DNA from: Jimgerdemannia flammicorona
Taxonomy: Eukaryota
Assembly: GCA_003990765.1 (NCBI GenBank)
Contig: RBNJ01000007.1
Location: 1-64,000, forward strand
Length of the DNA stretch: 64,000 bases
Direction: 5' to 3'
Numbering within the stretch: position 1 is the stretch's first letter; the number at the start of each line of letters is the position of its first letter. The notes beneath the pieces were generated by a model. That model saw only the letters and a list, made by a program, of their open reading frames with translations. It was not told the origin of the DNA and did no database searches. A program made the position numbers and the translations under genes. Below, piece after piece: positions 7,275 through 53,365 of the stretch.

Positions 7275-8310
7275 CAAACTATAGTCAGAACTCAGTAGAG
7301 GTATATAGTTTTTCCAATATATATTAGTAATTGATTGCTCTGTCTTCTCAATAAATTCTTTTTTTCAGCCTTGATCTTTATAATATTGGAGCTTTAATTG
7401 TGGATCTAAAACTGGTCAAATATTGGAATTATATTCAAAATAATAAAATTTCTCATTTTAATTTATAAAAAACAACACTTTACTTACTAATACTGACAGA
7501 AAATATGGAAGCACCTGTTTTTGAATAATATTTTTTAAGCTTCTTCAAAGCTGCTTCAATAGCTTCCTTTTGTCTTAAGAGAGATATATCTTCATTCTCC
7601 AATAAGTCTAACAAATCTTCAAGTTAATCAATCAAATGTGTAAGAGAGTTACTTATTAGGGTAATTATTACATAGTTCTGGAAGGATTTTCTGGAAGTTC
7701 TAGATATTCTGAAAGACTGTTTTCTTAAGGTCAAGATCAATTTTATATAGAGTATATCCTCTATACTTATTGATTTTAAGATTGAATTGATGTCTTAACT
7801 AAAGTCCTTTTTCAGACTAGTTCTGGATATTCAGGATTTTCTATATTTCAGGAAGTTTAGGAAACTAAGATCAGCTTAGTTGAATTGGCATATCACTGTA
7901 GACAATACTCAATTAGGAAATTTCATAATAGGGTTAAGAGTGAGACCTAATAGGGAGCAGATTAACTTAAGAGTAATTTATAAGTTATTAAATAGATTTA
8001 TTCACTATTTATAATATTGCTATATTAGAAGTAGTTTGTATAAAGGGATATTGTGAAAAAGCATTCAGAATTGTTCTTGTGTATTCGAGTCTGAGATTCT
8101 GAGATCTGAAGAGGGGGTATTTATACTAATAAGGGGCTATCTGGACTATACTGAATATGTAGATATAGTACTTAGTGTCTTGCTGAGTCAGAATATAGTC
8201 ATGTAGTATAAGTGTGATCTGATATGTCAAGAGATCATCTGACTACTGAGTCAGTTCACAGTCATATCATATAAGGCTAATCTAACTATACTAATAACTG
8301 CTGAGCTATC

Positions 8311-15814: not shown

Positions 15815-18800
15815 ATTTGTATATATGTTCAGGAGCTAGAGTTGTTTGTTTGGTTTGTTGTGGTTCTCTGTTTTGATACATCTAAGTACTCAGTATATAT
15901 ACATTCAGTCTTGATTGATAAGACTCTGTTTGTATAAATCTTGTATTCTGTGACTTCGAGTTAACTCAGCTTTATATACTGTAACTTTGGTTTGACTCAG
16001 CTTCATAATTATACAGATGATTTCCAGATTTTTTCAGAGATTTTATGTGATTTTGGTGGCTTGTTCAAAGGGTGATATGTGATTTCAGTAACTTGGAGGT
16101 TCTATGCTTACAACTCTCTCCTTCTTAGCTTTCAACATTCTCATCAGGGCCTTCTAGTTTTGTTCTAGTGTTTTTACACTATTTGGATGGTCAAAAGTCC
16201 AGTAACGTCCATTTTTTCAGAAAGTGGCATACTTATAGTATAGTTGTCTAATATATTGAATTCATATGTTAAAGGGTTATGTGTTTAATACCATATACCA
16301 GAAGTGATTCTGATGTCATTTACTGCTGGAGAATTTTCTCTAAGGAATCTTCTTAAATATCTATACCTTATTTCCCACCAGTGGTATGGGGAGAATAGAC
16401 TGGCTTTCAGTTTTGCTATTTTTCTAGAGTGTTGGTATTTCTTTGTCTTAACTTGCCGAGTTCTTAATTTTATTCATGATAATTATAAGAATACTTAATA
16501 TTCAGGAGGGGTAATATATAGTATATACTGATAGGTGCAGGAGTGTTCAGGTTTCAGTTGTTTAAAGAATCATATTCCTGAACTAAGTCAGTGGTATTCT
16601 AAAGATTGGTTTTAGGTTCCCATATTGTATCATGGATCAGATATCCTTTCCATTTGACAAGGTACTTAGGATGGTTCTTGTGACTATATTTGTTGAGGAT
16701 TTGTTCAACTTCATATTCTTCTTGGTCAATAATAATGACAGGTACAGGTGGTTCTGTGGTTTAGTTTAGAAATAACTCATCATCATTTTTATTGTATTGC
16801 TTGAGATATTAAACATTGAAGACCAGGTGAATCTTAATAGTATCTGATAGCACCAGTTTGTAGAAAGTTGGAGAAACTTGTGTAATAACTTTGAATGGTT
16901 CAATAAATTTACTGTTCAGCTTTGTAGATAGTCTATATTTGAGGTTATCAACCTGGTATCCTCAGATGTCCAGTAGAACTTTTTCTCCAATATCAAAGGT
17001 TTCTTCTCAGCAGTACTAATTGATATACTGTGACTGTTGTTCTTGAGCTTGTGATAAATTCTTGATAGCAATCTGGTTTAAGTTGTATATTCAGAGTAGG
17101 AATTTTTCAATGGCTTTGACTATGGAGAATTCATCAATAGTTCTGATAAGGATTAGAAGAGTATTTGGATTTTGTCCTATATTGGTGAAGAATGGGATCA
17201 TTCTAAGAGAGGCTTGCTTGCTGTTATTATAGGCAAACTCGACTATAGTGAGGTATTCATACCAATCATCTTGTCTGTAGGAAATATAGTTCCTTAGCAT
17301 TTATTTCAGAGTTCAGTTCATTCTTTCAGTTTGGCCATCAGTTTTGGAGTGAAAGGCTATGAATAGTGCAAGTTTTATTTCAAGGTGAGCATGGAGGGTT
17401 TTCCAAAAGTGGCTGGTAAATTTTGGGTCTCAATTACTAATAATAATTTTGGGAAGACCATGATAGTAGAAGATATTATCAAATAAGAGTGTAGTGATGT
17501 CTGGTGCTGTTGCAGTATAGCAGTTAGTACAAAGTGGGCTTATTTGCTAAGATAGTCTATGAAGACAATAATTGCATTTTTCTCATTCTTGGTTTGGGGT
17601 AGTTATACAATGAAGTCTATAGAGATTTGTTTCCAATTAGCAGATGATCCTATAGTCAGATATTTAGGATTTAACAAATACTATAAAGTTATTTTCCAAA
17701 ACTTCTATTAGCTCTATATAGCAGATTAGCTAAAGACCTATATTACTTCCTGTGATACCTGTTAATATAACAAGTTCTCAACACTAGCAAAACCTAGCCT
17801 ACTCCACCCCATCCTAGTTGGTCTATATATACAATCCAGTGAATGAGTCAATTTTGAAATTCTGCCAAAGAGTATGGCTAAATATTTTTGATTAAATAGA
17901 GTTATTAGTATAGAAATGGTTAGGCAATTAGATAAACATACCCACTATAGCTTGGATATTGATTTTATTTGTCTTTGTGTTCTTTTTGATTTTGTCAGAG
18001 TACTTGTCTTTTATGTGTTGATATATATTCAAAGTTAAACCACTAAGTATTTTGAACTTCTGGCTGTATAGTTTATGGAGATGGATGAAATAGTATTATA
18101 TATATATATATTAAACAAAGTATCAGTCATATCATAGATACATTTTTTTTTTTTTAATTTTTTATCTGTAATAGTTATAAATAACATCATCTCCTGTCTT
18201 AGTACAATATTGCCAGATTTTTGAGTGAGGATTGCATAGAAGGTATGAAACTATCAGAGATATTTAACTTAAAGTATCATTGGTACTGTGAACTGTTGAA
18301 GACTGATCTGTCAACAGATGTGTTTGTATGTTTGCATATGTGTTTTTTGCATATATATGTTTATACATATATATATGTATATATATTGTATATATATATA
18401 GATATATTCATATAGAGGATTTAGATTAGAGGATTCAGATTGGAGAATTTAGATTAGAGAATTCAGTTGAAGGATTCAGATGAGGATTCAGATTAAAGGA
18501 TTTAAATTGGAGGATTCAAATTAGATGATTCAGATTGAATGATTTGGATTGAGTGATTCAGATTAAATGATTCAGATTGAGTGATTTAGATTGAGTGGTT
18601 TGAATTAAGTAGTTCAGATGAGGTGATTTAGATTAATCCAAGTTGATTTGGATTGCTTTGGATTTGAGATTTGGATCAAACTATCATGTAATAAATCAAA
18701 TTCAGATTTAATTTAAATTGACTCATTTGAAGCACTATACCTTATACAGTATGCTAAATTGTGCCAAAAATGTATATATAGCTATACTGAGAGCACTACT

Positions 18801-20199
18801 AAGCTGGTCTGCTGTTCATTTCAGCAATCTGCTCAAAGAATCTCAGATCATAGCTGCTATTGCTATATAGACTGTATCATACTTACATATAGCTTATTTT
18901 TTGACAATACTTCTAAAGTTCTAATAAGGGTACAGAATCCTGTGCATCTTTGGAAATTTAATAAGAATAGGTTAATAAAGAAAATCTTGAAAAAAAGGAG
19001 ACAAATGTAGAGGATTTTGAAAAAAAAACTTTGAGAAATCCACTCTTTGCCAATGTTATAGTATATCTAATTCTTATCCAAACTTCTCCTCTCTACTTTT
19101 TACTTGGTAATGATTTATATGTTATCAAAAGTTAGACAATAGTATCTTTTATTCTCTATGGTAGTCTATTCATATATCATCTTGGGCAGTTCATATATAA
19201 TGTTTTTAATTCTCCATAGTAGTTTATTTATATATTATCTAGAGTAGTTCATATATATATAATATCTTTTAATTCTCTATAGTAGTCTATCTATACAGCT
19301 AGTACTTCAAACAAGTCAGAGAAATTCAAACTTGATTTGAATTTGTCAGTCATATAATTGATTCAAGTTGATTTGAATTCATCTTGTGACAAATTCAAAT
19401 TAATCTGAATTCATCCTGTAATAAATTCAAATTGATCTGAATTTTTCATGTGAGGAATTTGACAGTCATATCAGTCTGATATTGGTTTATATTAGCTCAA
19501 GCAGAACTGCTGGTTGCTAAAATTAATATAAACAATAAATTGAGTCAAACTTGAACCTCTTAGGTTGAAGGGTAGCCTGAATTGACTAGTATGAATTTGC
19601 TGGAATTTTCCAATTTTTTAATAAAAAAAATCTCCCCGTCTCTCTGAACAGTAATACATAAAACTACTAGAGAATATACAAACCTCCCAAAGATACAAAA
19701 AGCTGCTATACTAGATATACAAAATATCTATGAATTTTTTCACTCCTCCTTCAAGTTTCCAAAAAATTTATTATAACAACATACAGTCTCCAAAGTTCTA
19801 TAATAGATACTCAATAATAGACTATTTAAAACTTCCTCATCTCTTATAACTGTAGAACTATATAGTTGATCTGAATGAAATATTATTATTATGTTGGACT
19901 CCAGAGAAACTCCAACACTATAAGCCAAATTGTAAAATAGACCCCCAGATTTTAGAGTATATAGTCTCTTACACTTGACCATATAAAGTAAAACAGATGT
20001 CATATCTTGATCAGTATGGGTAGGAGAACTGATATACTATCCAAAGAATATATTACTAATATTTGCCATATTCTGCTCAAACTAGAATTTTCTAAGTTAA
20101 AAACATACTCTAGATTGACCTTGATTCATTTGATTTCTATCTATTCCAGGTAATTCCAGAGTATTAGCTAGGAACATCATATTAGTAGAGGATATCATA

Positions 20200-20330
20200 T
20201 TGATAGAGAATGCTGAGGTTGAGAATGTTAAGATTGAGGATACCAAAGTTGAGGATGCCAAAGTTGAAGATGCCAAAGTTGAGAATATCAAAGTTGAGAA
20301 TACCAAAGTCAAGGATAAGGATATCACAAT
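20200..20330. repeat. 15-bp tandem repeat GAGGATGCCAAAGTT (about 7-8 copies)
   Basis: Visible directly; in frame in the cargo ORF as STLAS repeats. Confidence 0.85.
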
Positions 20331-20559
20331 GCTTTCAGAAATAGTATCTAGAGATAGACAGTAAGGGATATTAAACTGATCAAAAATTATACAAAGTTGA
20401 GAAATTTGATACCACATTTGGTAGGTAGTGAAGAGAAGTAAAGTAAGCTCTATAATTACTATTTCATATTCCTCTTATTTATCTTATCTAATTTTTAGTT
20501 TGAAATTATTGAGAGATATAATACAGCAATATATTCTACTAGTGTAAGTCAATGTATAG

Positions 20560-22596
20560 TATCACATAGTGGTTGCTGAGTCCTTCAAATATATCAGATT
20601 CTCTCCAAGGTATATCTCTTAGACTAACTACAAGTTTGTTATAAGCAAGATCTTATTGGAGTGCCTTTCCAAGATCTTATAGTCCTCAAATGTCTTATCT
20701 TTAAACTGTCTTGTTATCTTTAGATTATTTGCATAAAATTGAGGATAAGTGAACTAGAACTGAGAGAACTATATTATACATATTGTCATATGGTAGATAC
20801 TGAGTCCTTCAAATATATCAGATTCTCTCCAAGGTGTATCTCTTAGACTAACTACAAGTTTGTTATAAGCAAGTTCTTATTGAAGTGCCTTCCCAAGGTC
20901 TTATAGTTCTCAAAATTCTTATCTTTAAACTGTCTTATTATCTCTTAGATTGCTTATATAGAATTGAGTGTAAATGAACTGGAACTGAGGGGACTATATT
21001 ATATATATTGTCATATAATAGACACTGAGTCCTTCAAATACATCAGATTCTCTTCAAGGTATATCTCTTAGACTAACTACAAGTTTATTATAAGCAAGTT
21101 CTTATTAGAGTACCTTTCTAAGGTCTTATAGTTCTCAAACTTCTTATCTTTAAACTATCTTGTTATCTCTTATATTGCTTGTGTAGAATTGAGTATAAGT
21201 GAACTAGAACTGACTTTATTTCAAAGGAAATAAGAGGGGTATTTATATAAAATATAATTTGATAGTTACTAAGTTATAAAGCTAAATATAAATTTCAATA
21301 ATCAAATAAAATACTAAAACACAAAAAACTATAGTTGTCTGAATAAATGGTTATACAAGTTTAGGATGTCAGTAGAATTTCAGTGGTACAGAAAAAGGAT
21401 ACCAGAAGAATTTTGAGTTATACAAGATCAGAATGCCAGAAAAATGACAGTTATACAAGAAAAGAATACTGGTAGAATCTGGTGTTACTAAGAACTTAGA
21501 GCAGAAAGTTCAGGACTATGGGGGCTTCATCTTCATTACTATCAAGGCCAGAGGTCAGAGACAGGATGTCTTCAAAGGAGATGAGGTCCATGAATATTTC
21601 ATCCATCTCATCATATAGATTGTATGTTTTGTATATATCATATGAGATAACATCATTGCTGATGATATCATCATGTTTAGTGGCAGAAAGAACAAGGAGG
21701 TCCAGGGCTCTCTAATCTATAACATTCTCTTCTACAAAATTAGAAACAAATATGGGGTCTTGGGGAGGTCTAATCTGGATGCTAGGGCCTTAGAATACTA
21801 AGATCAATTGTTGCAGGAATTGATCAGAATTGTCCTTGAGGATAGGGTTCCAGAACTCTTCTATCCTATCACTGTTGAGAGTAATAGTAGACTGGGCTTC
21901 TGTAGCCACAATAACCTCTAGTACATTGGTATGGTGGGCTGATAGTTCCTTGAAGTCTGAGATCTTAGTGTACTCCAAGTTGGAAATCAACCATGATGCA
22001 TGTCTGAAGACTTGGTAAATCTTCTTTGCTTTCCTTATTTCATATATATCTATAGAGTGGCATCTTGTATTTCTTGGTGACTGGCCTGAGGGAATTCCTA
22101 GCAGAGGAGATTTCCTATTTCATACTCCTGCCATATCCAGAGGTATTCAGTAGTGATAGTGATCTTTGTTTCCATTTCATAGCAGTAGAGAATATAATAA
22201 TAGGGGTCACCAGTACCCAGGTTGATGCTAGGAGTCCTTCTTATATGAGTCCTCATAGCTCTTCTGATGTCTTGGAACATCCTATCTTGGACTAAGGGGC
22301 CTTGGTGGTTCCTGAACCTTGAGGTTTAGTGAGCAGCAGGTATTTTATTTGTAGTAAGTCTTTAGAACTATTTCTGTAAGCTTTGTTTAGATTGCTGCTA
22401 CTGTGGTTTCTTAATTCTTCTTTTATATTCCTCGAGATGTCTATCTTGTAGTCACAATGACTCACAGTTGGTCATCATTACTCATCTTATAGCCTGAATG
22501 AGTCATATCATATAATCTTCCTATGCTCTGATCTGGTGGCTTATAAGAAAAGACTGTCTCCTGTGCTGATGTCATTATTTTGAGGTTATCATTACA
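20560..22596 (-). mobile_element. Solo LTR of family B with triplicated terminal (U5) unit
   Basis: Reverse complement of LTR 38431-39997. TSD ATAG at 20556-20559 and 22597-22600. Units of about 224 bp start at 20560, 20784 and 21009. Confidence 0.92.
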
Positions 22597-23529
22597 ATAG
22601 CCAGCTGATATATAAGACCCAGTTCTTGCTTAAGCCTTGTCATATAATCCAGCTTATCAAACTTTGAATACTTCCTCACAAATATCTATTAAGACCTGAC
22701 TTGTCTGATCTCTTAATATTCTCCTCTAAATTACTAAAACAACTTCCTTAGTATCAGCATCTAGGACAATATAATTGTGATTTGAATCCAGAATATTAGC
22801 TGGCAAATCAGAGGACTTCAAAAATATCATAGTTTGAAAGAGACCTGATGGGATATTGATGCTCAACTTTCTCAGAATCCTGTATGTAGAGTATGGTAGT
22901 TTGTTCTGCTGTGAGATCAAGTCTTGAAATTCTCAATATTTTGAAATCTATTAAACTTAGAATCTAAAACAGAGTTTGAATAAATTTAGCTTTAAGATCC
23001 TGTTAATTTTGCCAGTATTACTGCTGTAGATTCAAAAAATCCATCAATTGTACTTTATACTAGTTCTTCTTAGCTTTCTGGAAAATTAAATAAAAATAGA
23101 ATAATCTTATCAACAACTTACAATTAATGGACATGCCCAGCTCTCCCTGAAATCATACCTAGAAATTACCTAATCTTACCTTGATAGTTAGAAGATATTG
23201 AAAAATTCAGTTATATATCTTCAGACCCATTAAGAGAGAGCTCTCAGGAAAGTAGAAATACCACAGCTCAGATAATCTCTCATGATAAGGGCTCTGGAAT
23301 ATCTCCTGAAGTATATCAATCCTATACTTCATATTGATAACATAAATCAGGCAGCCTAAAAACTTTTCCAAGATATTGTATTTCAGCAGTTTTCTAAAAT
23401 CTAGTCTAAAAGTAGCCCTATTAGGTGAAAGAGTAGTGGGCATTGACAGAACAGCCTCCAACTCCAGCCTTGAAGTAGTCAGGAATTCACTCAGATCAAA
23501 GTCAATAGGGATGAAATCATCTTTTATTC

Positions 23530-23735
23530 TGGGAAACTAGTAGGTGGAAAACTGGCAGGTAAGAAACTAGTAGGCAAGAAACCAGTAGGTAAGAAACCAG
23601 TAGGTGAGAAATCAGCAGATGAGAAACTGATAGGCAAGAAACTGATAGGCAAGAAACTGATAGGTGAGAAATCAGCAGGTAAGAAACTAGTAGGCAAGAA
23701 ACTAGTAGGTGAGAAACTGACAAATGAGAAACTGG
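23530..23735. repeat. 15-bp tandem repeat (GGYRAGAAACYRGYA, about 14 copies)
   Basis: Visible directly; variants are nearly all transitions. Confidence 0.9.
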
Positions 23736-23787
23736 TAAGACAGGAGTATGGTCAATTATGGTAAAAAAAATAAAGAAACTGCCTAAA

Positions 23788-24110
23788 ACAGGATATCAGA
23801 GACTGACCACAAGAGATCCTCCTTGGGAGAGAGAGTACTCTATCAGTATAGATTAGGAGACACCCCCCCAACCAGCCTTCTCTGGGGCTGATAGTCTGAG
23901 ATAGGATGATAGAGACTAGCTGCAAGAGGTTCTCCTCAAGAGAGAGAGTACTTTATCAGTATAGATCAGAAGACACCCCTCTGACTGGCCTCTACTAAAG
24001 CTGACACCATCCAGAATAAGATACCAGAGACTGGCCATGAGAGATTCTCCTTGAGTGAGAGAGTACATTATCAGTATAGATCATAGGACACCTCTATAAT
24101 TAGCCTCCAA
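23788..24110. repeat. About 115-bp unit, 3 tandem copies
   Basis: GAGAGAGTAC.YTATCAGTATAGAT recurs at about 23830, 23943 and 24058. Confidence 0.85.
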
Positions 24111-24299
24111 GTCACCCCTGCCCCCTACTCTTATGAGTGAGCCACTATTATAGCTGAGTCACTACCATAGTAGAAAGCAAGTACACAATACAGAATAAAT
24201 ATCACACACCTGGAATAAGCATCAAGATGTACCCAGGAATAAAGAAAAGAGTAGCAAGATAGTGTGTCTAGATAATATACTGATGTGAGTAGTGAGATG

Positions 24300-24835
24300 C
24301 AATTAGTGGTAAGAACAGGGTGGTGAGAATGAGGTGGTAAAAATGAGATAGTGAGAATGGAGTGGTAAGAATGAGGTGGTGAGATGGGTTGGTGAGACAG
24401 CAAGCCAGAATACTAAAATGGATAGTGAGATGAGGTGAGACAGAGTGATAAAGTAGAGTGAGACAGAGTGAGGAGATGAGGTAGAGTGAAAAGATAAGGC
24501 AGAGTGAGGGGATGAGACAGAGTGAGAGAATGAGGCAGAGTGGGGAGATATGTAAGACAAAGTGGGGGGATGAGGCAGAGTGGGGGGATGAGGCAGAGTG
24601 AGAAGATGAGGTAGAGTAACAAAAGAGTGAGAGAATAAGATAGAGTGAGAGGATGAGACAGAGTGAGAGGATGAGGTAGAGTGAGAGGATGAGGCAGAGT
24701 GAGAGGATGAGGCAGAGTGAGAGAATGAGGCAGAGTGAGGGGATGAGGTAGAGTGAGGGGATAAGGCAGAGTGAGGGGACAAGGTAGAGTAAGAGAAATG
24801 AGATGAAGTAAGAGAAATGAGACAGAGCAAGGTAT
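24300..24835. repeat. Purine-rich 18-bp minisatellite (GAGGCAGAGTGAGRGGAT)
   Basis: Visible directly. Confidence 0.9.
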
Positions 24836-25149
24836 GATAAAAATGAGCCTCAAAAAAAGCAGATATCTATACTGCAAACTGGTATGAACTGGCTGACATG
24901 AACCAATATAAACCAACCTGAACTAACCTGAGGTGATTTGGAGTTTTTTTCAAGCTGTGAGATTCAGAGCTTTTTTTATATTATAAAATTTAGAGCTTTT
25001 TTTGAGCTGCAAGATTCAGAGGTTTTTTGAGCTGCTTTCAGTAGAGAGAAATAGACAGCAGATTTGTTGGAGCCTTTTTTAAAGTAGTAAGAAATAAGAC
25101 AAGCTATCTTAAAAAGATTTCTTTAAGTACCTGATAAGATTTTACAGAA

Positions 25150-25472
25150 GTAAGAATAAGTGAGCATAAATGAGAGAGTGTGAACAAGAGAGAGAGTACA
25201 AACAAGAAAACACAAATAAGGAAGCATAAATGAGGAAATATGAATAAGAGAGTGTGAATAAGAAAGTGCAAATAAGGAAGTATAAATGAGAGAGTACAAA
25301 TAGAGGAATACAAATAGAGAAATATAAATAGGAGAGTATAAATAAGAGAGTATGAACAAGAGAGTATAAATAAAAGAGTATAAACAAGAGAGTATGAATA
25401 AGAGAGTATAAATAAGAGAGCATGAACAAAGGAGCACAAACAAGAGAGTATAAATAAGAGAGTGTGAACAAG
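25150..25472. repeat. Purine-rich 15-bp minisatellite (AAATAAGAGAGTRTR)
   Basis: Visible directly. Confidence 0.9.
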
Positions 25473-26544
25473 GGGGAGGGGGGTGGTGGAAAAAAAAAAG
25501 CAATACTGTACTGCAATAGCTAGACCAGGTATGTGATTGCCAAATGGGTCAATATTGCTAGATATATATTCTCACAATTGTCTGGCAGACAGATATACCT
25601 CTGTAATTACTTTTGCAATTGCTGTCAGGCTGCAGTAAAAATCTGGGACTTTTAACTAGTTATGTAAAAATAATCATTTATTTCCTGTTAATTCTCCAGC
25701 AAAACTTCTTATTCAAATTGCTGCTTAGCTATCTATAAAGGCTATTGAATTCAGCTCCTTCACATCAATATTACTCTAAACTCTACCAAATGCTTATAAC
25801 TTTATATATGATTAAAAATATTTTTTCACTAAACCTTAGGATAGAGATATAGTAAATACCAAAACTAGTTTTATAAGCTATATTCTGTGAGATAGCTCAG
25901 ATAATACTAGATTATCCTAACTAGGCAGAATTTAGAAATATCACCACTATTACTACTATCACTACTGTTACCACCTCATCACAGATATCATACAATCTAC
26001 ACTAATCTCAGCTATTCTTCTTTTTGATAATTTCAAATTATTTGAGCTATCAATTTAAGTCTTTTTTAATTACTATGAAATTACAACCTCTATTCTTCAT
26101 TTTCTTACTGAATTTCAAAGTTTTTCTTTGATATATATTATCATTATTCTATACTCCTATATTACTAAGAAAGAGTAATTTTAGTAACTGATAAATTCTC
26201 TAATCTTCTTAGTAAACTAAGCTCAAGATATATTTATTTCAGTACTAACTTACCAACTTCTTCAAATGATCCTCTACTAGATGCTATATAGTGAAATGGT
26301 GACCTCAGAATGATGACATCAGCATAAGAGACAGCCTTTCCTTGCAAGCTACCAGATTGGAATACAAGAAGATTATATGGCATGACTCAGGCTATGAGAT
26401 GAGTAATAATGACCAACTGTAAGTCATTGTGATCACAGTTCAGGCATCTTGAGGAATATAAAAGAAGGATCAAGGAACAGCAGTAGCAGTAACTCAATAA
26501 GACCCACCAATTCCAAAATAGCTCAAAGACTTACCACAAATGAA

Positions 26545-27099
26545 ATGTCTGCTGCTCACCAAACCTCAAGGTCAAGAAACCACCAAGATACCTCAGTTGA
26601 AGAAAGGATGTTTCAAGACATCAGAAGAGCCATGAGGACCCATACAAGAAGGACTCCTAGCCTCAACCTGGGTACTGCAGATTCTTATCACTTTATTCTC
26701 TACTGTCATAAAATGGAAATAAGGATCACCATTGCTACTGAATGCCTCTAAATGTAGCAGGAGTACAAAATAGGAAACCTTCTTTGCTGGGAGTTCCCAC
26801 AGGCCAGCCCTCAAGAGTTACAAGATACCACTTCCATAGATATATATAAAACAAGGACAGCTAAGAAGATTCATCAGATCTTCAGACATGCACTATGGTC
26901 GATCCCCAACTTGGAGTATATTAGAGTCTCAGATTTCAGAGATCTGTCAGCCTGCTATATCAATGTACTAGAAGTCAGGGTAGCTACAGAAGCCCAGTCC
27001 ACCATCACTCTCAATAGTAATGAAGTAGAAGACTTCTGGCATTCTATCCTTCAGGATAACCTAGATCAATTCCTGCAAGGATTGATCTCAGTATTCTAA
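26545..27099 (+). pseudogene. 184-codon ORF inside family B 5' LTR, unknown function
   Basis: MSAAHQTSRS...MFQDIRRAMR...EYKIGNLL...LISVF*. Same length at 38684-39238, and at 22343-21790 with a 1-nt deletion. Confidence 0.8.
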
Positions 27100-27707
27100 G
27101 GCCCAAGCATCCAGATTAGACCTCCCTAAGACCCCACATTTATTCCCTATTTTGTGGAAGAGAATCTCATAGACTGGAGAGCCCCGACCTCCTTGTTCCC
27201 ACTACTGCTAAATGTGATGACATCATTGGCAATGATGTCATCTCACATGATATGCATGAAGCATATGAAATACGTGACCTATGTGATGAGACCAAAATGT
27301 TCATGGATCTCATCTCCTTTGAGAACAGTGATGATGAGGATGAAGTTCCTATGATCCTGAACATTCTGCTCTAAGTCCCTTAGTTATACTGAATTATGCC
27401 AGCATCTTTTTCCTATGTAACAGCTATTCCTCCACCAGTATTCTGACCTTATGACTCAGAGTTATTCTAGCACTATTTTCCTGTATCACTGAAATTATAC
27501 CAGTATTCTGAATCTGTGTAACCATCTATACCAACCCTGGAACTTGGCAGTTTTCTATATTTCAGCATTTTATTTAGTTATTGGAATTTATATTTAGCTT
27601 TATATCTTAATTATATTTTGTATAAATATCCTTTTTTTTTTTTTTTATAGTCTCTTGGACTCCATCTTTATTACCAGTCTATGAATAAGTATACAATAAC
27701 ACCCCCT

Positions 27708-30700
27708 CTACCCTATCCCCCTCGGGGGACCTCTCCCCTCCTCTACACATATAAAGACCACCCTCTCACCAACAACTCCAACTCTCCCACCACTCTGACC
27801 ACAGATTTTCACCACCAAGTGGTACCTCTGACCCCCCTGCAGCCCCCAACCAAGCCACCAGCCTGTCAAGGTATCCTCCATAAGGTACTGCCACCGTGAT
27901 AACCGGCTCCCCAAGCTCTGCCACCTCTCCTCCTCAAATATAAATAGCCAGTGACTGGCCAGCCCCACCCAAATAGCCAATGCCCAGCCTAGAGTAATCC
28001 ACTCCTCCCCTACCCCTCCTATCAATCGATCCCTCAGGTCCTCCCACCTCCCCCGTACATCATCACCCCTACGCCTTACCCCCAAGCGGTCCCCAATGGT
28101 CTGCCAAAAGTCTCCCAACACCTCACACTCCCCAAGCCAATGTTCTGGCGTCTGTACAAATCCCCCTTCCTGCCCTACATTATGGCACTCCTCGCAGTCA
28201 AAGCAGCCCCCTACAACGAGATGTCCTGAGCGGAAGTTAAGCATCACATTCCTCCTCAGCATATGCCACCAGACCACCCAGTACTTCGGCAGCATCCAAT
28301 TTTTCACCATGGCACTCCAGGTCCAAACCCCCTGCCAGTCCCACTCCTCGCCAATTCTGACTCCTTGCCAATCACTAGGCCACAGATCCTGGCCTGGTCC
28401 CCTTTGGCATTCGATTCCATCACCAATGTTGAACTCCAGCAAAGGCATGCCTCCCAGAAGAATGCCATCCCATCTCCACATCGCCGGGCCCCAAGCCCTC
28501 TCCCCCTCATCCCCTTGCCAGCAGATACCAATGCGGTGTGCCCCCTCAGCTATCCCCCACCAGAAACCTTTATAACGCAGTTGCCCAGTGTTCTGAAGCC
28601 CAACTAATGAAAGAAGATCACCCGTCAAGCCTCTTGGTGATGTCTGCCTCTCCCACACCTTCTGCAGCAAGGGAACCCAGCCCCCTCCACACAACTCCAC
28701 TGCCCTCCTGAGCCACCATGCCCTCAAGCAGTGTAGTCTTTTGGGGAAGTCCACCAGCCCAAGACCACCTCTCGCCACTGGTAGGGACAGTGTTTCCCAA
28801 CCAATCTGACTCCGTCTGCCAGCCCAAATCCATCCCTTGGCCACCTTCATCAATCGCTTCACCACCCAGGCTGGGAAGTCCAGATAATAAGTCAAATACC
28901 ACAGTTTCGGCATCCAGTATACATTCAAAATCAAGATCCTTCCTGCCAGAGAGAAGTGTCTTCCCCCCCAACCCCACAGGACCTCCTCCCAAATTCCAAT
29001 CCTCTGCTCCCACCATGGCCTGGGCAGAACAGATCCATAGACTGACAAATATATGCCCAAGTACCGCACTGCCTCTCCGGTGGGGACAATTGTTCCAATA
29101 ACCTCTCTGCCCACCAGTCTGTTACCCAGCACCATCGTTTCGCACTTGTGCCAATTCAGCTTTGCCCCAGAGTTCTCCTCATACCACTCCACTGTCTTCT
29201 TGAGCTCCTCGACATCCGCAGGTACTCCCAAACCAACCACCATGTCATCTGCAAAGGCTCCAACTTTCCAGCCAATTCCATAGATAGAGAGCCCCACAAT
29301 CCTCCGCCGAATTCAGTCCATTAGAGGCTCTAAGGAAAGTGCATACAAAATGGGGGACAGTGGGTCCCCCTGGGGCACTCCCCTACCCAGAGGGAATACT
29401 ACCCCTCTATGTCCATTATACACGAGCGCAGCCCTACTCCTTTCCAGTAGGCTGACTATCACCGCCCAAAATGGGACCGGAACCCCAATCCTATCCAACA
29501 CTTTCGCCAGCCAGACTCGCTGCACCCGGTCATAGGCCTTCTCCTGGTCCAAGAAGACAAGACGCCCATCCAGTCCACAGGCTCGAGCACCTTCAATAAC
29601 TCCATGTACTCAGGCCATGCCATCTCGAATAAGCCGACCCCCTATGAAGCCCCTCTGCTCAACACCTATAATTTGCTGGGCCACCTTCTGCAGCCTTGCG
29701 ACCACCACCTTAGTCACCAACTTTCTGTCCATATCTAGCAACATTATCGGCTGCCAGTTCTTCCAATCCTCTCACCTTCCCTTGTTCTTATAAAGCAGTG
29801 TCACCAGCCCAAGATCCTGCTCCCCCACCCATCTCCCTGACTGCAATATGGAGTCACACAGTGCTGTCAACTCTCCCAGTATGCCTGGGACTCCAACCAT
29901 TTGCTTCCAGAAGTCCCAGGGGAGGCCATCCTCCCCTGGCACCATACCTGAGGCTGTCGCGGCAAGAACCTGGTGGATCTCGTCCTCCTTTACAGGCATC
30001 ACCAGGTCACCTAATCCCTCAGCTCGTGGAGGGTGCCAATCTTCTAATGTATGGTCAATGGCTATAGCATCTGCCCCACTCTCCTCCTCACTCCACAATG
30101 CACTCCATCATGCCTTCAGCATTCCAAGGATATTCTGTACACTATGCACTAGTCTACCATCCAAGTCCAGTATCCCTTCTCACCGCTGCTGTACCCTCCT
30201 CACTTGAAGCGTCCTCATAAGAAACTTGGAAGGCCTCTCCCCTTCCTCCAGCCCCTGCCAACGAAGCTGTGCCACCAGGCCTTGCACCCTTGACTCTTCC
30301 TCTTCCCTCAGCACCTGTTGTAGTTCCCCAACCTCTATCTTCACTCTTATTATTCTCCAATCCTCTTCTCCCTCCACTATTGCCAGACTCACCCACTCCT
30401 CCAGAAGCCCAGCCAATCTAGTAGAAGCCCAATGCACTCTCTGCCTTCGCTGCCTCCCAACCACTCTGCCAGCCTCACTCCAATACATCCTGGCCATCTC
30501 TTTCATCCTCCTCCACCGAATCCCAATTATAGCCCCTTCCTGCTGCCACTTCGCCACCTTCATCTGAATGTCTTTTGCCCACTCCTCCCACCAGGACTCG
30601 TCATCCAACAAGGAGGAATTCAGGCGCCAATGTCCAGGCCCATCACCACTACTCCCAAAACACCCCTGTCCCAAAAGGCCCCAGTGATCTGACCACGGAC

Positions 30701-31364
30701 ACCACTCTACCTCCAGCCCCTTCCAGACATCACGGCCCCAACAGTCGGCCATCAGAATCCAGTCAATCCTTGTCCCCAGACCTCCAGCCCAATGCGTATA
30801 CACCCTCTGATCCTCCCAGTACTTCCTACCAGCATCCAACATCGCTCCTAGCCTTTCGACCTCCTCCCACATCGCCAGCCCCCCACTCCTACTCTCAGCA
30901 CCCCGTCCTCCATCAGTTCTATCCAGCCGTATATCCCGAACCATATTGAAATCTCCTCCAAGTATATCCAACCCAGCTTCAGCAAGGGTCCCACTCTCCA
31001 GGAGACCTTTCACCCAATCCACATGCTCCCCCTGCACAGCAGGGCAGTAACAGGAGCCAACTGTAACTGGCTCCCATCCTGCACGAATCCACTCACCCCA
31101 GACCAGTCTCTCCCCCCAGCTCCTCACATCCTGTATCTCCCCTCTGCCTTTCCGAACCAGAATTCTGACCTTGCTGTTCCAAATCGCCATGCCACCCCAT
31201 TCCTTAGTCCATTCCATCCTATCAGAATCATCCTCGCACCTGACATCCTGCAGGAGGAAGAGATCGGCCTCTAATCTCTTCAACCAAATAAAAATGTTCC
31301 TGCGTCTAACTGCACCCCTAAGCCCATTCATGTTCAAAGAAAAAATATTGGTTGTACTGTTCAT
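27708..31364 (-). pseudogene. LINE ORF2: AP endonuclease + reverse transcriptase + C-terminal Cys/His finger
   Basis: SLNMNGL, LQD, GGDFN, RIDW and SDH (APE). LDQEKAYDRV, GVPQGDPLSP, FADD and YLGI (RT). CEEC...HWLGEC. One frame with five internal TGA stops. Confidence 0.93.
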
Positions 31365-31397
31365 AATGATGAAATATGGTTTGTTTGCAATCAATCC

Positions 31398-33428
31398 CTA
31401 CTGCTCCATGCCCATCTCCTCCTGTGCCATGTCCAGATTACGTTCAGCCATCACCTCCTCCTCTTCAGCCCTCTGAGCCTCCAGTCCAGCCAACAGCTCA
31501 TTCATCTCCTCATCAGCCTTCTCCTCAAACTCCTCTCTGTACTCGATGCAAGCCTTCTGCCAAAGCTGCAACCCATGACATCTGTTCCAACAGTATTCAG
31601 CCTTCTCCCCAGCGACAACTGCCAACTCTGCCTCCCTCTCCTTGTCCACCTCATACCCTTCCTCCTCCAGATATACCGTGAGAATTTCCGCCTTCAGTGC
31701 CATCGCCACTCCTTCCCCCTGCAAAATTCTTGCCCAGTGCTCGTCACCCATCCCATGCAAGTCCACCTCCCCCAGCTCTTCTGCTGCCAGGTTGTTCATC
31801 ATCTGGCACATCCAAAGTAGGTTCCCCACCTCCTTCCCACCAGGGGTCGCCGGCCGCCCTCCATCCAGCATTGTAGTGTCAGCTCCAGCACTCACATCCT
31901 CATCCCATACCTCCGGGACATCCACCAGTTCCTCCTCCCCAGCCACCACTACCTGGTCCCCATCCATTACTTCCGGAATGCTGAATTTCACCTGCTGGGT
32001 CCCCAGCATCGTCATGTCCTCCCCAGATTTGTTCCTGGAAGCCGAGCCATGCCTGATAAGAGGGGAAGGGGTGGGGGAGTTTTCCAAGACTTCCTCCCAA
32101 ACCTCGAAGGTGCCATCCACATAAGGGTCGCTAATTGTCCCCTCTTTTGCCTTCCCTGTCTTTGCCCCATCCTCCCCACTCCACTCACTAGCCCAGACAC
32201 TCGCTCCAGCCCCTTCTGCACTCATCTTCATGCTCACATCCTTCTGTGGTCCACCCCCCAGTTTAGCCAGCAGCTCCTTCTACCTCTTCCGCCCCTGAGC
32301 CCTTTCTCACTGCACCTTGTCCACTCAAATCCTCTTTCCATCCACCACCTCCAGGTGTGTCGACTCCTCGAAAGTCTTCCAGGCCTTGGCACACCGTTCC
32401 ACAGCCCCATCCAGCTCCTCCAGCGCTTCCAATAAATCCTCCTCCTCTTCTTCACTTCCTTTCACCCGCATCACCTTGCACAGGAATGTACCCCAAACCA
32501 TCGCCGAAGGCCAGTCCCTCGTCTTCCCAGTACCCTCCTTTCCGGCCAGCCGAATCCTCACATCCACGTCCCCAGTCCTGAGCATGGTCCCTTCAAAGAC
32601 CCTGAATCTGATATCCACTACCTCGCCGTACTCCGCCATGACATCCTCCACTCTCTTCCGCGTCTCCATCACCATCACCGTGGGGACTCCTTTCACCAGC
32701 AGTTGGACCACCCTTGGATCTCATTTCAAACATCTCGCCATCAGAACACATACCTCTCCAACCACCAACTCAATCCTCAGTGCCTCCTCCAGTGGTTCGA
32801 CCTCCTCAAAACCCACCTCTACCCCTTCCAGTCCCTTCAGGAACTTTACCGAAGCCACTCCAGCCACCTACTTAGCGATAAGCCCCAACACCATTTTCGC
32901 TGTCACTGCTAAGCCCCGGAAACACAGCATGACTGCAAACGCTGAGATCGACTTCTTGAGTAACGGAGCCACCGCCAGTCCCATTACACCATCCACCAGA
33001 TCTCCGGGCCTCATGCCCTTCCCATCACTCGGCTCACCATCAGCAGTCCCATCTAGATTTTTTTCCAGATCACCCGTCACACCCCCATCAGCAGTCCCCG
33101 CCCCAGCCGCTACCCCCTCAGCTCCACTCCTATGGCCCTCCAGAGAGGTACCCCCAAGAGGTTGCTACCTGGTAGCCTTCACTGGTACCTTCCCCCCTTG
33201 GAGCCAGCTCTCCAGTCCAGCCCCTTGCTGACCCCCCTTCACCTTCTCCGCAAAGCTCACCCTGCCTGACCCTTGACCTCCAGCTCCACCCCCTCCTCCA
33301 CTGCAGCCTCCCACCAGCAGGCCCCTCATACTTCCCCCCAAGCCGGGGCCTCTCCCCACTTGCTGCCATTCAAACGCTCTAGGGCCACCCTGCCCAGTAC
33401 GCACCTCCGGATGCTCGTTGGTCACCAT
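31398..33428 (-). pseudogene. LINE ORF1 (RRM-like region, acidic coiled-coil tail)
   Basis: ORF-track fragments 33428, 33080, 32711 and 32237 share one frame, with six internal stops. VKGVP...YGEVVDIRF...LRTG segment resembles Tx1-type ORF1 RRM. Confidence 0.8.
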
Positions 33429-33799
33429 AATACTAGTAGCTTTTCTCCAGAAACTGTATCAAAAGTATTGCCAAAGCTTGTGTAACCTGAATGTTACTGG
33501 AGAAAGGATGTATAAATATCCTTCTTATTTCCTCTGAAATAAAGTCAGTCAAGTTCACTTATACACAATTTCTTGCAAGCAATCTAGAAGATAATAAGAC
33601 AGTTTAAAGATAAGAAGTTTGAGGACTATAAAATCTTGAGAAGGCACCCCAATAAGAACTTGTTTATAACAAACTTGAGTTAGTCTAAGAGATATATCTT
33701 GAAGAGAATCTGATATATTTGAAGGACTCAGCAAACACTATGTGACAACTTGGTACCTATTGGCTGGTAATTCAAGATGAATCTCTCACTTTCAAGCTG

Positions 33800-36700
33800 A
33801 AAAATGAACAACCACCACAACAACTACTCTGACTACAAGAGTCACCCCTATAAGAATTCAAGATAAGATGGAAATGTATTCCCCCACATTCTATAGATAT
33901 ACTACTAAAGAGTCAATTCTGACCTCCATTGAAGACTTTGAACAATTTGCCACTATATGAGCCCTTAGTATGGATGCACAATTGGCTCTTCTACCAGTCA
34001 ACCTCAGAGGACCTGCCAGAGACAAGTTTAATATAGCCACTATCACTGATAATGGTGCAGCCAAACTTGCCAACATAAAGGCCTTCCTCAGAACAATATA
34101 CTATACTGAAGAGATCAAATAAGCTCTCAAGGATCAACTCAATACTATCTGCCAGGGACTCAGTGAAGATCCCAACTCATTCTATACCTGGATCTGCCAC
34201 CAGATTGTCTTGGCTGGCTATAATGATCACCTCAAGGAACAAATAGCAGATTCAACCTTCCTCAAAAAAGTTCACCCTGAAATTGCCCTAGCAATCTGGT
34301 CTATCCCAGCTGTACTGACTCTTGATCAGAAAGTGGTCTTTGTACAGAGATATTGGACTATCAGACACCCTGCCAAACACTCAATGGAAAAAATAACTAG
34401 CATCAAGATAGAGCCATCAAAGCCAACTAGTATCATACCCACCACAGTTGTAAACAGACAACTATCCTCACTTACCCCCAAGGCAATCAAAGTTGACCTA
34501 GTGAAGGAACTTGCCAAGCAGTTTACCGAGATGACTGCATATATTGGTGATGTTGTTAGAGAAGTCTGAAGTACCAACAGGAGACCAGTGCAGAGATTTG
34601 CAGCTGCTACAGAAGAATACAATATCACATATTTCAAATGTGGAGAAGAAGGCCACTATGAAAAGAGTTGTAGGACTGAAACAAGATGCAAAGCCCAACC
34701 AAGCAATGCTAGCAGAACCAGAGAACAAACCAATATAGTAGTCATCAAGAAGATTGGTGACACTGATAATAAATAATACTATAAGGAGCTTGAATTCTAC
34801 CCTGCTACTGAAGGTACCAGAACCCAGTCCAAGCCCTATGATAAGAAGAGCAACTGTAAGCCAGTTGGAAGACCAAAGAAGACCCCAGCTATCACTATCC
34901 AAAGCAAGACGCAACCTAAGGAGATTGATCAAGACATAGAGTTAGAGGAAGCTACCCACCAAATCATTGAAGACACTACTTCAGTCTTAGGAGAAAGTGA
35001 AAGCAAGAAGGAACAGAAGCTGCATAAGACTAAGATCTACTAGTATAATATCTACAAGGACCTTAAGGAACAGAAGGTCAATGCTACTTTTGGACAGCTA
35101 GCCAAAGTCCCTGCCTTCAGACAGTAGTTAAGAGTAGGACTTACAACTATTGCCAAGAATCAAGAGTACAAGATTGTAGAAACTCATGATGTATAAGAAG
35201 ATGATCAAGAAGACTCAGGTGAAGAATCTGAAGACTAGCACAAGACATCAGCCTATACCCCATGTCAGATCAAAGATTGTATCTTTAATACCATCATTAA
35301 TATCAGTACTGGAGGATACCTCATGAGCAAGAAGGCAATTGACCATTTAGGCTGGAACATTGAAGAGTCCACCAAGATGGTCTATATCACAGCAGATGGT
35401 ACATAAGCTACCCCTCTTAGCAAAATCTGAGAAGTCTCCATCAAGATAGGAGGAGCTACCATTCCAGTAGATGTGATTATTACAAGTGCCACCAACTATG
35501 ACATTCTCATTGGCAACCAATGGCTTCACAAGGCCAAGGCCATCATTGACCTCAATGCCCAGAAGATACAGATCAATTATAGAGAAAGAAAGGTACAAGT
35601 CTCTATCAATATCCACAAAGGAGTTCTATCAGACATGGAGAAAGGAGATGAAGAGGACACAGAAGTCTTCATACACTCAGTGAACAAGAATAAGAACAAG
35701 ACACCCAAGCTCACAGATAAGCAGTGGTACAATAAGATCATTGATAGCTATGCTCCTTAAGGAAGATGCCCCCATGGTACTAAGATGTACTGCTCTGAAT
35801 ACTTGAATAACTGCTGGTTCTGTATCAGTAAAGTCAGAAAAATCTGCCAACAGAAGCATGAGCAAGAAGCTGCTGAAGCAAAAAGGAAAGCTAAAGAAAA
35901 TGACCAGCCTCTAGAGCTGCAAGCTGACAGTGATGATGAGGAGGAATAAGAACCAGATATCACCCTCAAGGTCAAGAAGTTTCACCCTGAAGCCAAGATC
36001 CCAGAATACAAGACTGAAGGAGCCATAGAAATAGACCTTGCTAGCATTTAAGATGCTACTCTTGAACTATAGGCCACTACCCTACTTGGCACTGGAATTA
36101 GAGTCAAGTTGCCAGAGAACTATGCTGGAATTATCAAGACCAGGAGCAGTCTGGCCAAAAGAAAAATCTCAGTTAAAGGAGGAGTAATTGACCCTGATTA
36201 CACTGGTGAGATCTTTCTCATAGTTAGAAATCACAACCCCACTACTCCATTTGAAGTCAAGAAGTATGAAAGGATTGGCCAGATGCTGATCCACGAAATC
36301 AAGAAGTCCAAGATCACTGAAGCCATCAAACTCATCAAGACCAAGAGAGGAGAACAAGGCTTTGGATTTACTGGAAGAGGAGCCTATACTGCTACCAAGA
36401 TTACCGAACTTGAACACAAGAAAGACAGGGACCAGAACAAGCACACATATACCATTGGAGAAAACTTTCCCCTAGAAGAACAACTTCTCAAGATCCTGCA
36501 CCAGAACAAAGAAATACTTGCTACAGACTTCAGAGATATCCACAATCAAGAACCCAAGCACTATCATGAAGTTAATACTAGTGATACCAAGCCCATCTAC
36601 CAGAAAGCCAGACCTATACCACCTGCCTATAGAGAATGGCTGCAAGCAGAACTCAAGGAAATGGAAGAAGCTGGAATTATCAAGCAAGCTATCAGTCCCT

Positions 36701-38075
36701 GGGCTTCACCCATTGTCCTTGCCCTGAAGAAAGGAAGTAAGTCTGGAGAGTTTGCCCTAAGACTCTGTATTGACTACAGGAAGCTCAATACAATTACCAA
36801 GAAGGATAGACAGCCCTTGCCAAATATTCAAGAAATTCTTACCACTCTTGGAAACAAAGCCAAATACTACACCACCTTAGATCTATTCTCAGGTTTCTAT
36901 CAGATTAGTCTCACTCAAGATGCCAGTGAGAAATCAGCCTTCATCATACCTGATGCTACCTATATCTACCTGTGAATGCCATTTAAAATGTGCAATACCC
37001 CAGCAAGTTTTCAATGAATGATGAATAGAGTCTTCAGCAATGAGATTGGAAAATGGCTCTTTGTCTATGTTGATGATGTGATCATCTTCAGCAATACTGC
37101 ACAGGAATATATCAACTATATATAGCTAGCTCTCAAGAAGCTCAAGGAGTATGGCCTCTACATCAAGCCCAAGAAGTGCAAGTTTATAGCTTAGGAAATC
37201 ACCTACCTAGGACACCTCATCAATCAGACCAGAATCCATACAAATCCTATGAAGATTGAGGCTGTTGCAGCCTACCTGAGACCCAGAACAACTACAGAAG
37301 TCCATGCCTTCTTTGAACTGGCCTCCTACTACAGAAGATTCATCAAAGGATACTCCAATATTGCAGCACCTATCTACAAGCTACTGAATAAGGAAACCAA
37401 ATCTGCCACTACAAGACACCAAGGCAAATTATCACAGACTGTAGCACAGAATTTGTCAATGGATTCCATGAGATAATATATCAGAAATACAAGATTCAGT
37501 ACATCAAGACCACTGTGTACTACCCTCAAGAAAATGGACAGACAGAGAGAACCAATAAGACTCTCAAGAACATCCTAGTGAAGATCTCAGAGACATATGA
37601 GAATTGGGATAACTACCACCCAACTGCTCTCTCTGTCCTATGAGACATATAGTTACAGAGTACACACTTTACCCCAAGAGCACTGCTCTTTGGAGAAGAA
37701 GATTCTGATGGAACCTCAGCCACAAATCTAGACCTAACTTGGAGATAGGTTGATGCAGAAATCCAGAGGCTATACCAAATTAGGAAGAAGGCTGAAGATT
37801 ATATCATCAAGTCATAAGCACTGATAAGGAAGAATGCAGAAAAGAATCACAAGACCCTAGAACCCATCCAAATCAGAGAAAAGGTCCCACTATATTGAAA
37901 TATGGTAGAAGCCTCATGGTCATGAAAACTGGAGCCCAAATAGGAAGGACTCTTCTATATATAAGATATTAAGGGAACTACCTTCTGGCTTAGAAAAATC
38001 TCAGGAACCATACTGCCTACCATGGTATATAGGAATAGACTCAAGAAGTACCATGAACCTATACAAGAGAAGTAA
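33800..38075 (+). pseudogene. Family B gag-pol remnant
   Basis: Knuckle [C]FKCGEEGHYEKSC at about 34630-34670. Protease at about 35250-35610. dUTPase RSSLA, GGVIDPDYTG, RGEQGFG at about 35960-36375. RT SPWASP, CIDYRKLN, LDLFSGFYQI, YVDD (about 37067-37078). Jumps at about 37400 to the integrase core (NGQTERTN). Confidence 0.92.
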
Positions 38076-38430
38076 AACGTGATAACTGCTTGTAAGGTTC
38101 TAGTCTGCAAATTGTAACAGCATGTCCTGTAACCAGCAGGCTATCTGTCTGGACTATTCTCTAAGGGATATGATACCAGCAACTACTCATCTGTGAGACT
38201 TTTGAAGCCAGAGGAGTTCAAACCATCAACTGATTGGTCAAGATCAGAATCAGGCCCTTGCTCTATATGAAGGGAGCAACTCTTCACCATTACACCAAAA
38301 TACAAAGAGAAGACACTAGTCCATAAATACCACTTTTTGACCCCTTGCCAGAGGTTATGGGATTAGCAAATTTTTCAGGACTGGACTAATGAATAAGGAT
38401 ATTCAAGAAGATCCTTATTCAGAAGAAAGA

Positions 38431-39997: not shown

Positions 39998-40001
39998 ATA
40001 G

Positions 40002-42600: not shown

Positions 42601-43044
42601 ATGACTGGTCTGTTAATATTGACATAATATATATACATATGTATTTGTATATATTTTGCTCATATATTTTTTTATTTATATATACTAGTAAATTATATGA
42701 TAAGTTCAAATTTGAGATTTGAATCAGATGGTTTGAATTTGAGATTCAAATTAAGTAGTTTGAGTCAAGTAATTTGAATTCAATAATTTGAATCTGAATC
42801 TAGAGATTTAAATCTAGTAATTTGAATCTGATAATTTGAATCTAGTAATTCAAATTTAGTAATTTAAATTAGTAATTCAAAGATTCAAATCAGAGCAGTC
42901 ACAATTCAAACTGATTCAAATTAATTATATGATAAATTTAAATTAATTTGAATTAATCATGTGATGAATTCAGATCAGTTCTAATTAGGAATAGTTACAA
43001 TTCAAATCAATTTAAACTAACTTATTTAGAGTACTACATATAAC

Positions 43045-44478: not shown

Positions 44479-44903
44479 AATCATATTAGGTGTTGGCTAG
44501 CAATGGCCAATGTTGTCTATCAATGTCCGACTCAATCCATCCGCAGTTTCGGTTTGCCACGTAATTCTCTGCAGTTGCGACACATCCTCCAAAAATGTAA
44601 TGTAGATATTCGATGCAATCATAGCAGTCGACCCCTTTTTTATGTGCTTTAAGATTACATTAGTCTAATTGACGCGATAAATTATGTAACAGATACTATC
44701 TCGAATGCCAACTTCTAGTAAGCGTCCAATTTATGCCTATTTGTGCTTTTTGGAAACGGTATTGCTAAAGGTCATCGCCACTTTAATGATATTCATGTGT
44801 GGGTAAAATGTAACATTGTAAAAGCAAAAATACCTGGACATAATTATTTATGAATTACTTAGTCCCAAGATACTGCTGGGGCTGCATGTCACCGCGCTCC
44901 ATC

Positions 44904-50540
<5,637 letters not shown>

Positions 50541-51008
50541 AGAATTCTTTATTTGGGGTAGAAGTAAACCAATTGGTGTGGCATGGGAAGCGAAAAAGTA
50601 CGTATGTTGCGTAAAAAAGTCAATAATGTTTAACATGTTGATAGATCGAAATTATTGGCCTAGATGGCAATACAACGAATACGACCAAACTTTGGCTGAG
50701 ACCATAATATTTCGCCAAAACGCGCTTTTGGCGTGTACGGAGTTTAAGTTTGAGGAGAGGGAGGTGATGGTGAATAGAGAGGGGGGGGAGCGATATGATT
50801 TTCTGTTGGGCGCCGATGGTATTTATTTTGGGGTTGGAATTTTGCATTATTATATGAGCACTAGTCTTCAAATCCGGTCGTTCCAGACAATAATTCATAT
50901 ATGCCAGTCACAGTCACGTTTTGTGACGGATGACGCAACAGCCCACGTATGTCTCTTACGTCTTTGCTCCGCCTCTCTCAGCTGCCTCCCACATCCAAAC
51001 CTCCAACA

Positions 51009-53283: not shown

Positions 53284-53285
<2 letters not shown>

Positions 53286-53364: not shown

Positions 53365-53365
<1 letters not shown>

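Follow-up and report, generated by a model that had tools for sequence, protein, structure and literature searches.

TET/JBP genes associated with Kyakuja-Dileera-Zisupton transposons were reportedly described in Basidiomycota by Iyer et al. in 2014. The closest described systems come from rust fungi, in which TET+ hAT, EnSpm, Harbinger and other transposons have been documented, TET/JBP genes being present in 11 DNA-transposon lineages (Kojima 2025, Biology 14:1741, PMC12730594; here and below, statements on this paper refer to the accessible part of its text and of its Table S1). The role proposed for TET+ transposons in rusts is escape from methylation or from C-to-T hypermutation. Twenty TET+ hAT families, named hAT7 after their 7-bp target site duplications (TSDs), are known from six Puccinia species, and the accessible part of Table S1 gives 11 TET+ families for Austropuccinia psidii, five of EnSpm and six of Harbinger/PHISTA type, with no hAT among them (PMC12730594). 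As summarised in the same paper, CcTET of Coprinopsis cinerea oxidises both 5-methylcytosine (5mC) and N6-methyladenine (6mA), and CcTET, NgTET, CMD1 and TET2 are stated there to have solved structures. Here we describe a hAT element with a second gene, ORF2, beside its transposase, located in a 64,000-nucleotide stretch of the genome of Jimgerdemannia flammicorona (assembly GCA_003990765.1, contig RBNJ01000007.1, positions 1 to 64,000; hereafter the window). In the reading that we favour, with a probability of about 60%, an autonomous hAT transposon of ~8 kb has left a dead copy here, and its second gene most likely encoded a strongly diverged Fe(II)/2-oxoglutarate (2OG) dioxygenase of Tet-like type.

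An earlier note on this DNA had put forward the association of a hAT element with a TET-type gene as new; the published hAT7 families precede it (PMC12730594). The kind of system is already known, and what the locus adds is a new hAT lineage and a new, more divergent passenger family. Like the hAT7 elements of Puccinia, the window element is a hAT-superfamily transposon with a probable Tet-type gene next to its transposase. Unlike them, it has an 8-bp rather than a 7-bp TSD and TAGTGCTTCAAAC termini rather than a start in CAACGGTGGG, and its ORF2 is much more divergent than the hAT7 TET genes as far as these are accessible in PMC12730594. Termini of the hAT7 CAACGGTGGG type show no excess in the window (16 matches versus 17.8 expected). 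Of six motif words of the ORF2 family, five do not occur in the accessible text of Table S1, and the sixth, FYNL, is found there a single time, in a PU-type protein that is unrelated. With the Kyakuja-Dileera-Zisupton TET/JBP genes and CcTET, ORF2 shares its location on a transposon and its multi-copy nature, whereas the transposase superfamily is a different one and there is no detectable sequence match. Among protein families, the nearest neighbours according to a protein language model are PF20515 (2OG-FeII_Oxy_6) and PF12851 (Tet_JBP), and the HxD...H motif is kept; unlike members of these two families, however, no protein of the ORF2 family reaches E≤1 on either hidden Markov model (HMM). 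Within the accessible literature we found no paper naming 2OG-FeII_Oxy_6 or PF20515, a preprint on the stripe-rust pan-genome merely listing a Tet-like 2OG-Fe domain.

The element lies in AT-rich DNA (GC 0.21–0.43 across 15–45 kb), within a pile of repeats nested in one another. Taking together its terminal inverted repeats (TIRs), TSD, inverted subterminal repeats and PF05699 domain, positions 19300–43036 are one hAT element, with the transposase, which sets its orientation, on the minus strand at the right-hand end. The left TIR (TAGTACTTCAAACAAGTCAG; 19300–19319, plus strand) pairs with the right TIR (43017–43036, minus strand), the two being identical at 16 of 20 positions and differing by transitions at the other four. 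The 13-nt terminus TAGT[G/A]CTTCAAA[C/T] marks positions 19300 (plus strand) and 18737 (minus strand); the minus-strand terminus ending at 43036 is more eroded and departs from the IUPAC form at one position. The terminus at 18737 belongs to a second copy of the element and is a third terminus in agreement. Flanking the TIRs are TATACAGC on the left (19292–19299) and CATATAAC on the right (43037–43044), which are identical at five of eight positions and differ by transitions at three, a correspondence with a chance probability of 0.002 (200,000 random 8-mer pairs drawn from the region). Read as a 7-bp TSD, the flanks match at none of the seven positions. The 8-bp TSD is degraded by hypermutation, and support for it is moderate. 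Internal to the TIRs, 32-bp repeats in the left subterminal region (19361–19456) find an inverted match in the right one (42903–43016). The transposase remnant (minus strand, approximate outer limits 40040–42400) is very degraded, the region being filled with stops and having a GC content of 0.21–0.26. Searching the three minus-strand frames of 39990–42700 against Pfam gave a single match, to the C-terminal hAT dimerisation domain Dimer_Tnp_hAT (PF05699; 40058–40198, minus strand; E 5.5e-6, 26.5 bits versus a cut-off of 21.4), and none to an RNase-H-like DDE catalytic core. Without guest insertions the element measures 7,982 bp (19300–20559, 22601–26287 and 40002–43036) and has a GC content of 0.30; the remainder consists of nested retroelements. 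The delimitation of a hAT element by TIRs and an 8-bp TSD, as proposed in the earlier note, is thereby upheld, and so is the placement of ORF2 within it: the gene is downstream of and co-oriented with the transposase, and its stop codon (19740–19742) lies 440 bp inside the left TIR, which begins at 19300.

ORF2 is interrupted by a solo long terminal repeat (LTR) on the minus strand at 20560–22596, flanked by ATAG duplications at 20556–20559 and 22597–22600. This ~2-kb repeat recurs twice in the opposite orientation, from 26292 and from 38431, as the LTRs of a retrotransposon at 26292–39997, which bears out its identification as an LTR. Excision of 20560–22600, the step suggested in the earlier note, places 22932–22601 and 20558–19743 in a single minus-strand frame. 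The reconstructed gene could be compared with an intact homologue of 374 aa, designated P0001. In a tblastn search of the LTR-excised minus strand (E 4e-77), residues 3–73 of P0001 aligned to 23053–22841 and residues 76–374 to 22851–19743, and the alignment crossed the excision junction collinearly and without a gap. Removal of the LTR thus restores one minus-strand gene (~23053–19743). The 5′ half of ORF2 (22601–23053, minus strand) accordingly corresponds to residues 3 to ~160 of P0001; the 3′ half (19743–20559, minus strand) is recognised through its phmmer match to P0001 and through alignments with homologues. All of the previously quoted motifs were recovered in their places on the minus strand, namely DADTKEVVLVI, GSYISAGY, HTD (20018–20010), GGLFYNLAYSVGV and YSST (19862–19851).

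The window copy of ORF2 is a pseudogene, and present activity is not supported. The LTR insertion apart, the frame is broken by 12 stops and, near 22845, by one frameshift, and it is lengthened by ~60 codons through 15-bp tandem repeats at 20202–20291. Ten of the stops face a residue of P0001, and seven of these ten are opposite W, R or Q. This is the pattern that C>T and G>A changes would be expected to leave, for one such change suffices to turn codons of these amino acids into stops. The HTD motif has been kept, and the distal His has become Tyr (YSST). The start of the gene needs to be revised: homology sets in near 23053 and not at 23461, as had been supposed. Further upstream there is an open frame of 109 codons (23536–23207, minus strand) in the phase of the ORF2 N-terminus, separated from the ORF2 homology by four stops and without a homologue or a Pfam match. 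It may represent a lineage-specific N-terminal extension of ORF2, or it may be non-coding.

The 3′ half of ORF2 (272 residues, with stops replaced by X) was compared by phmmer with 1.84 billion representative proteins. Seven matches were obtained at E≤1e-3, the best being P0001 (E 2.2e-48, 50% identity). A word-index search started from P0001 contributed P0008 (259 aa) alone, while the word-index protein searches started from the two window halves of ORF2 found nothing and tblastn of P0001 on phage genomes gave no match. The ORF2 gene and its protein family are certainly real. The family keeps the pattern P-T-H-x-D-x-D...G-G-x-F-Y-N-x-x-Y-G-x-G-V...N...F...H-G-[ST]-T, in which HxD...H corresponds to the iron triad of 2OG-Fe(II) dioxygenases. 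Of the 12 sequences covering the HxD column, 10 have the motif, and P0002 and P0005 read HVN. The distal His, the possible absence of which from other copies had been raised as an objection, is likewise present in 10 of 12, with Tyr in the window copy and in P0018. All exceptions (HVD to HVN, His to Tyr) are single transitions. The two His residues are 52 residues apart, and HxD and the distal His rank among the best-kept positions in sequences that are just 27–47% identical. At the distal site the homologues have HGST or HGTT, and the intact relatives P0001, P0008 and P0006 read HGST, precisely the motif to which the YSST of the window copy had been proposed to revert. The triads of the database homologues P0002, P0005 and P0018 show damage of the same kind as that of the window copy. 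The cluster to which P0002 belongs has 28 members spread over many short contigs, and outside the window, too, the family has the character of a decaying repeat with many copies.

For ORF2, assignment to the Tet-like Fe(II)/2OG dioxygenases is the best reading; it is partly shown, falls short of proof and is based on the neighbours assigned by the protein language model and on the HxD...H motif pattern. In the ESM Atlas the top hit of P0001 (score 0.96, 211 of 256 features shared) was a cluster of Basidiomycota proteins, 15% of which carry PF20515. When residues 120–374 were used, all 30 named clusters were either PF20515 (8) or PF12851, Tet_JBP (22). Among the eight PF20515 clusters, in which shares of 15%, 72% and 100% were seen, one is automatically named 'Tet-like 2OG-Fe(II) oxygenase superfamily domain-containing protein'. 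Comparison by eye with the PU-type TET domains in the accessible part of Table S1 (PMC12730594) points in the same direction: five collinear blocks, judged visually and not computed, are common to these and P0001, for example FF..PH.D..DL, G.G..F.......F....G.......H.T and.H...S...

Several results weigh against this assignment. The Atlas recognition value of 2137 falls below the threshold of 2300 given by the tool, so that high scores are weak evidence, and according to the caveat of the tool itself 10 out of 10 matches to the same clan arise for a third of shuffled proteins. Pfam searches returned no family for the ORF2 pieces of the window, none for P0001–P0007 at E≤1 (PF12851 and PF20515 included) and none for the nine-row alignment A1, in which P0008 is included, at E≤10. 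A profile of the family matched no chain in the PDB at E≤10, despite the solved structures of CcTET, NgTET, CMD1 and TET2, and HMM searches of PHROGs and NCBIfam gave nothing meaningful. Structure prediction with AlphaFold2 from alignments of 9 and 14 rows resulted in models too poor to read (predicted local distance difference test, pLDDT, 36.6 and 38.8). The column after the distal His, where a basic residue anchoring 2OG would be sought, is occupied by H, N or T; compared by eye, H also stands there in several PU-type sequences in the accessible part of Table S1 (PMC12730594). Finally, the sole other hAT copy in the window is truncated at position 1, and the stretch where an ORF2 could sit falls outside the window, which leaves ORF2 as a putative regular component of the hAT family. 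For the TET/JBP-like dioxygenase proposed in the earlier note, the unanimous neighbours and the kept HxD...H speak in favour; the HMM searches yielded no match to Tet_JBP or to any other 2OG profile. Two candidates from the structural databases were set aside: a chitinase-fragment match from the PDB sequence search (E 0.43) was taken as due to chance, and a Foldseek search of the PDB with the model of pLDDT 38.8 gave no match at E≤0.001, its top hits, viral glycoproteins, being discarded as noise.

The alternative that survives best, although we regard it as improbable, is that ORF2 is not an integral passenger of the hAT element and belongs either to an older nested element with eroded ends or to a fragment captured once. 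Between the transposase and ORF2 there are ~3.2 kb of tandem repeats, the second hAT copy departs from the first ~100 bp past the end of the transposase, and an 18-nt inverted repeat surrounds ORF2 (19482–19499 and 24899–24916, 89% complementary). However, 7 kb of this AT-rich DNA contain 48 pairs of comparable size, that inverted repeat included, and neither PHISTA-type termini (29 versus 24 expected) nor those of the hAT7 type exceed chance. The search for termini of a separate nested element around ORF2, by inverted repeats and by the PHISTA and hAT7 patterns, thus returned none that convince, eroded ones being possible; a nested element with its own termini had been named in the earlier note as refuting its proposal. 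Moreover, the subterminal repeats of the hAT element, which extend to 19462, come to within 280 bp of the ORF2 stop, and ORF2 shares its orientation with the transposase.

It is also improbable, and somewhat harder to maintain, that ORF2 encodes a transposon accessory protein of another fold in which H..D...H is coincidental. This would account for the nil return from HMM, PDB and structural searches, and the Atlas evidence is weak by the tool's own flag. On the other hand, HxD and the distal His are among the best-kept positions of so diverged a family, and HxD...H is embedded in GG.FYN..YG.GV...N....F....HG.T with a His-to-His spacing of 52 residues; such a spacing and such surroundings are typical of the 2OG dioxygenase fold. 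All 30 named neighbours also agree in direction. The least probable alternative is an Fe(II)/2OG dioxygenase that does not act on 5mC, be it by oxidising thymine or 6mA, by AlkB-like repair of alkylated bases, by CMD1-like addition of a group to 5mC or by modifying proteins: HxD...H defines the superfamily and not the substrate, the column of the usual 2OG-anchoring Arg is unconserved, no HMM puts the family in PF12851 or PF20515 and Kojima, in the accessible text, also allows for other activities of the PU and PE types (PMC12730594), but the 30 named neighbours are all Tet-like or Tet_JBP, with no other 2OG family among them, and a DNA transposon in a CpG-eroding genome suits an enzyme acting on DNA bases.

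Returning to the Tet-like dioxygenase, the ORF2 family could tentatively be regarded as a fourth, hitherto unlisted transposon-borne Tet-like type beside the PU, AG and PE types of Kojima, one captured independently by a canonical hAT lineage with 8-bp TSDs and so divergent as to be invisible to curated HMMs. Lacking the usual 2OG-anchoring Arg, such a type may differ in co-substrate binding or in choice of substrate. We consider this proposal possible rather than likely.

The second hAT copy is fragmented (475–906, 7275–7635, 17818–17889 and 18267–18737, minus strand) and has the same orientation as the first. Its right TIR (18725–18737) stops 562 bp short of the left TIR of the first copy, and the two copies are 79–82% identical across 40006–40800. 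Their closeness suggests local transposition. At ~465–475 the second copy displays the uninterrupted target site of the LTR retrotransposon that is inserted in the first, and because of this empty site positions 26287 and 40002 can be recognised as formerly adjacent. Like the first copy, it has been broken up by nested retroelements. Tblastn of P0001 identified no second copy of ORF2 in the window. In the first copy, ~2 kb between the transposase and ORF2 (23503–25498) are occupied by tandem arrays with units of 15, 113, 14, 18 and 14 bp, and the second copy has different repeats at this position.

The LTR retrotransposon (26292–39997, plus strand) is full-length, encodes protease, dUTPase and reverse transcriptase (RT), has a polypurine tract ahead of its 3′ LTR and is bounded by ATAG duplications at 26288–26291 and 39998–40001. 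Its insertion point lies ~50 bp beyond the end of the transposase, on the downstream side. The identical 4-bp duplication, ATAG, is seen at both insertions of this LTR family and may reflect a target preference. The 5′ LTR of the retrotransposon is split by a long interspersed nuclear element (LINE; ~27650–33510, minus strand) with APE endonuclease and RT domains, a GC content of 0.53–0.56 and open frames of 534, 405 and 293 codons. The LINE, which sits in a heavily eroded LTR, looks young and has largely escaped hypermutation.

The two LTRs of a retrotransposon are identical when it inserts. Comparison of the two belonging to this one (26292–27640 and 38431–39790) revealed 171 transitions and 4 transversions at 86.9% identity, and the observed/expected ratio of CpG is 0.01 in the sequence of the hAT element itself versus 0.36 in the LINE. 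The transition excess together with the loss of CpG is the signature of methyl-CpG deamination aimed at repeats, in keeping with the hypermutation of cytosines in repeats that had been noticed from the sequence alone. For the dating of the retrotransposon insertion, the 13% divergence of its LTRs would be a grossly misleading clock.

Further features of the window are less directly connected with ORF2. A dUTPase domain (PF00692) is located beside protease and RT at 3104–3805 (minus strand, E 4e-29) and at 36073–36972 (plus strand, E 8e-20); its presence in LTR retrotransposons is of note in a genome in which repeats decay through cytosine deamination. The three copies of the 2-kb LTR, which are ~20% divergent, each contain an open frame of 109–126 codons at the equivalent place (21793–22119, minus strand; 26758–27096 and 38756–39133, plus strand). 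Pfam searches with these LTR open frames gave no family, and a protein-coding LTR would be unusual. Beyond the transposon pile, 44900–63900 is an ordinary gene block with a GC content of ~0.5, encoding AMP deaminase, delta-aminolevulinate dehydratase, UFD1, a PNP/UDP phosphorylase, TFIIIC Tau95 and a peptidase-inhibitor-I9 protein.

For the ORF2 protein we infer a double-stranded beta-helix fold, a DNA-base substrate and an anti-silencing role. In intact copies, the enzyme would oxidise 5mC on the element or nearby. Such oxidation would counter CpG methylation and, thereby, not only the silencing of transcription but also the erosion of this genome's repeats by methyl-CpG deamination. In the window copy such a system would have failed through the LTR insertion, the 12 stops, the frameshift, the repeat expansion and the loss of the distal His. 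Since ORF2 is dead and the element fully eroded, the locus is the record of a lost counter-defence and not of a working one.

The clearest candidates for a counter-defence against the methylation that guards fungal genomes are the Tet enzymes carried by transposons. To these the locus contributes a further hAT lineage, the second, and a family of sequences invisible to standard annotation, and therefore surveys based on known Tet profiles probably undercount passengers of this kind. In practical terms, an alignment of P0001, P0008 and their relatives may serve as a seed for locating intact copies. Where the counter-defence is lost or insufficient, the outcome is the one on view here, with CpG virtually gone and the element riddled with retroelements.

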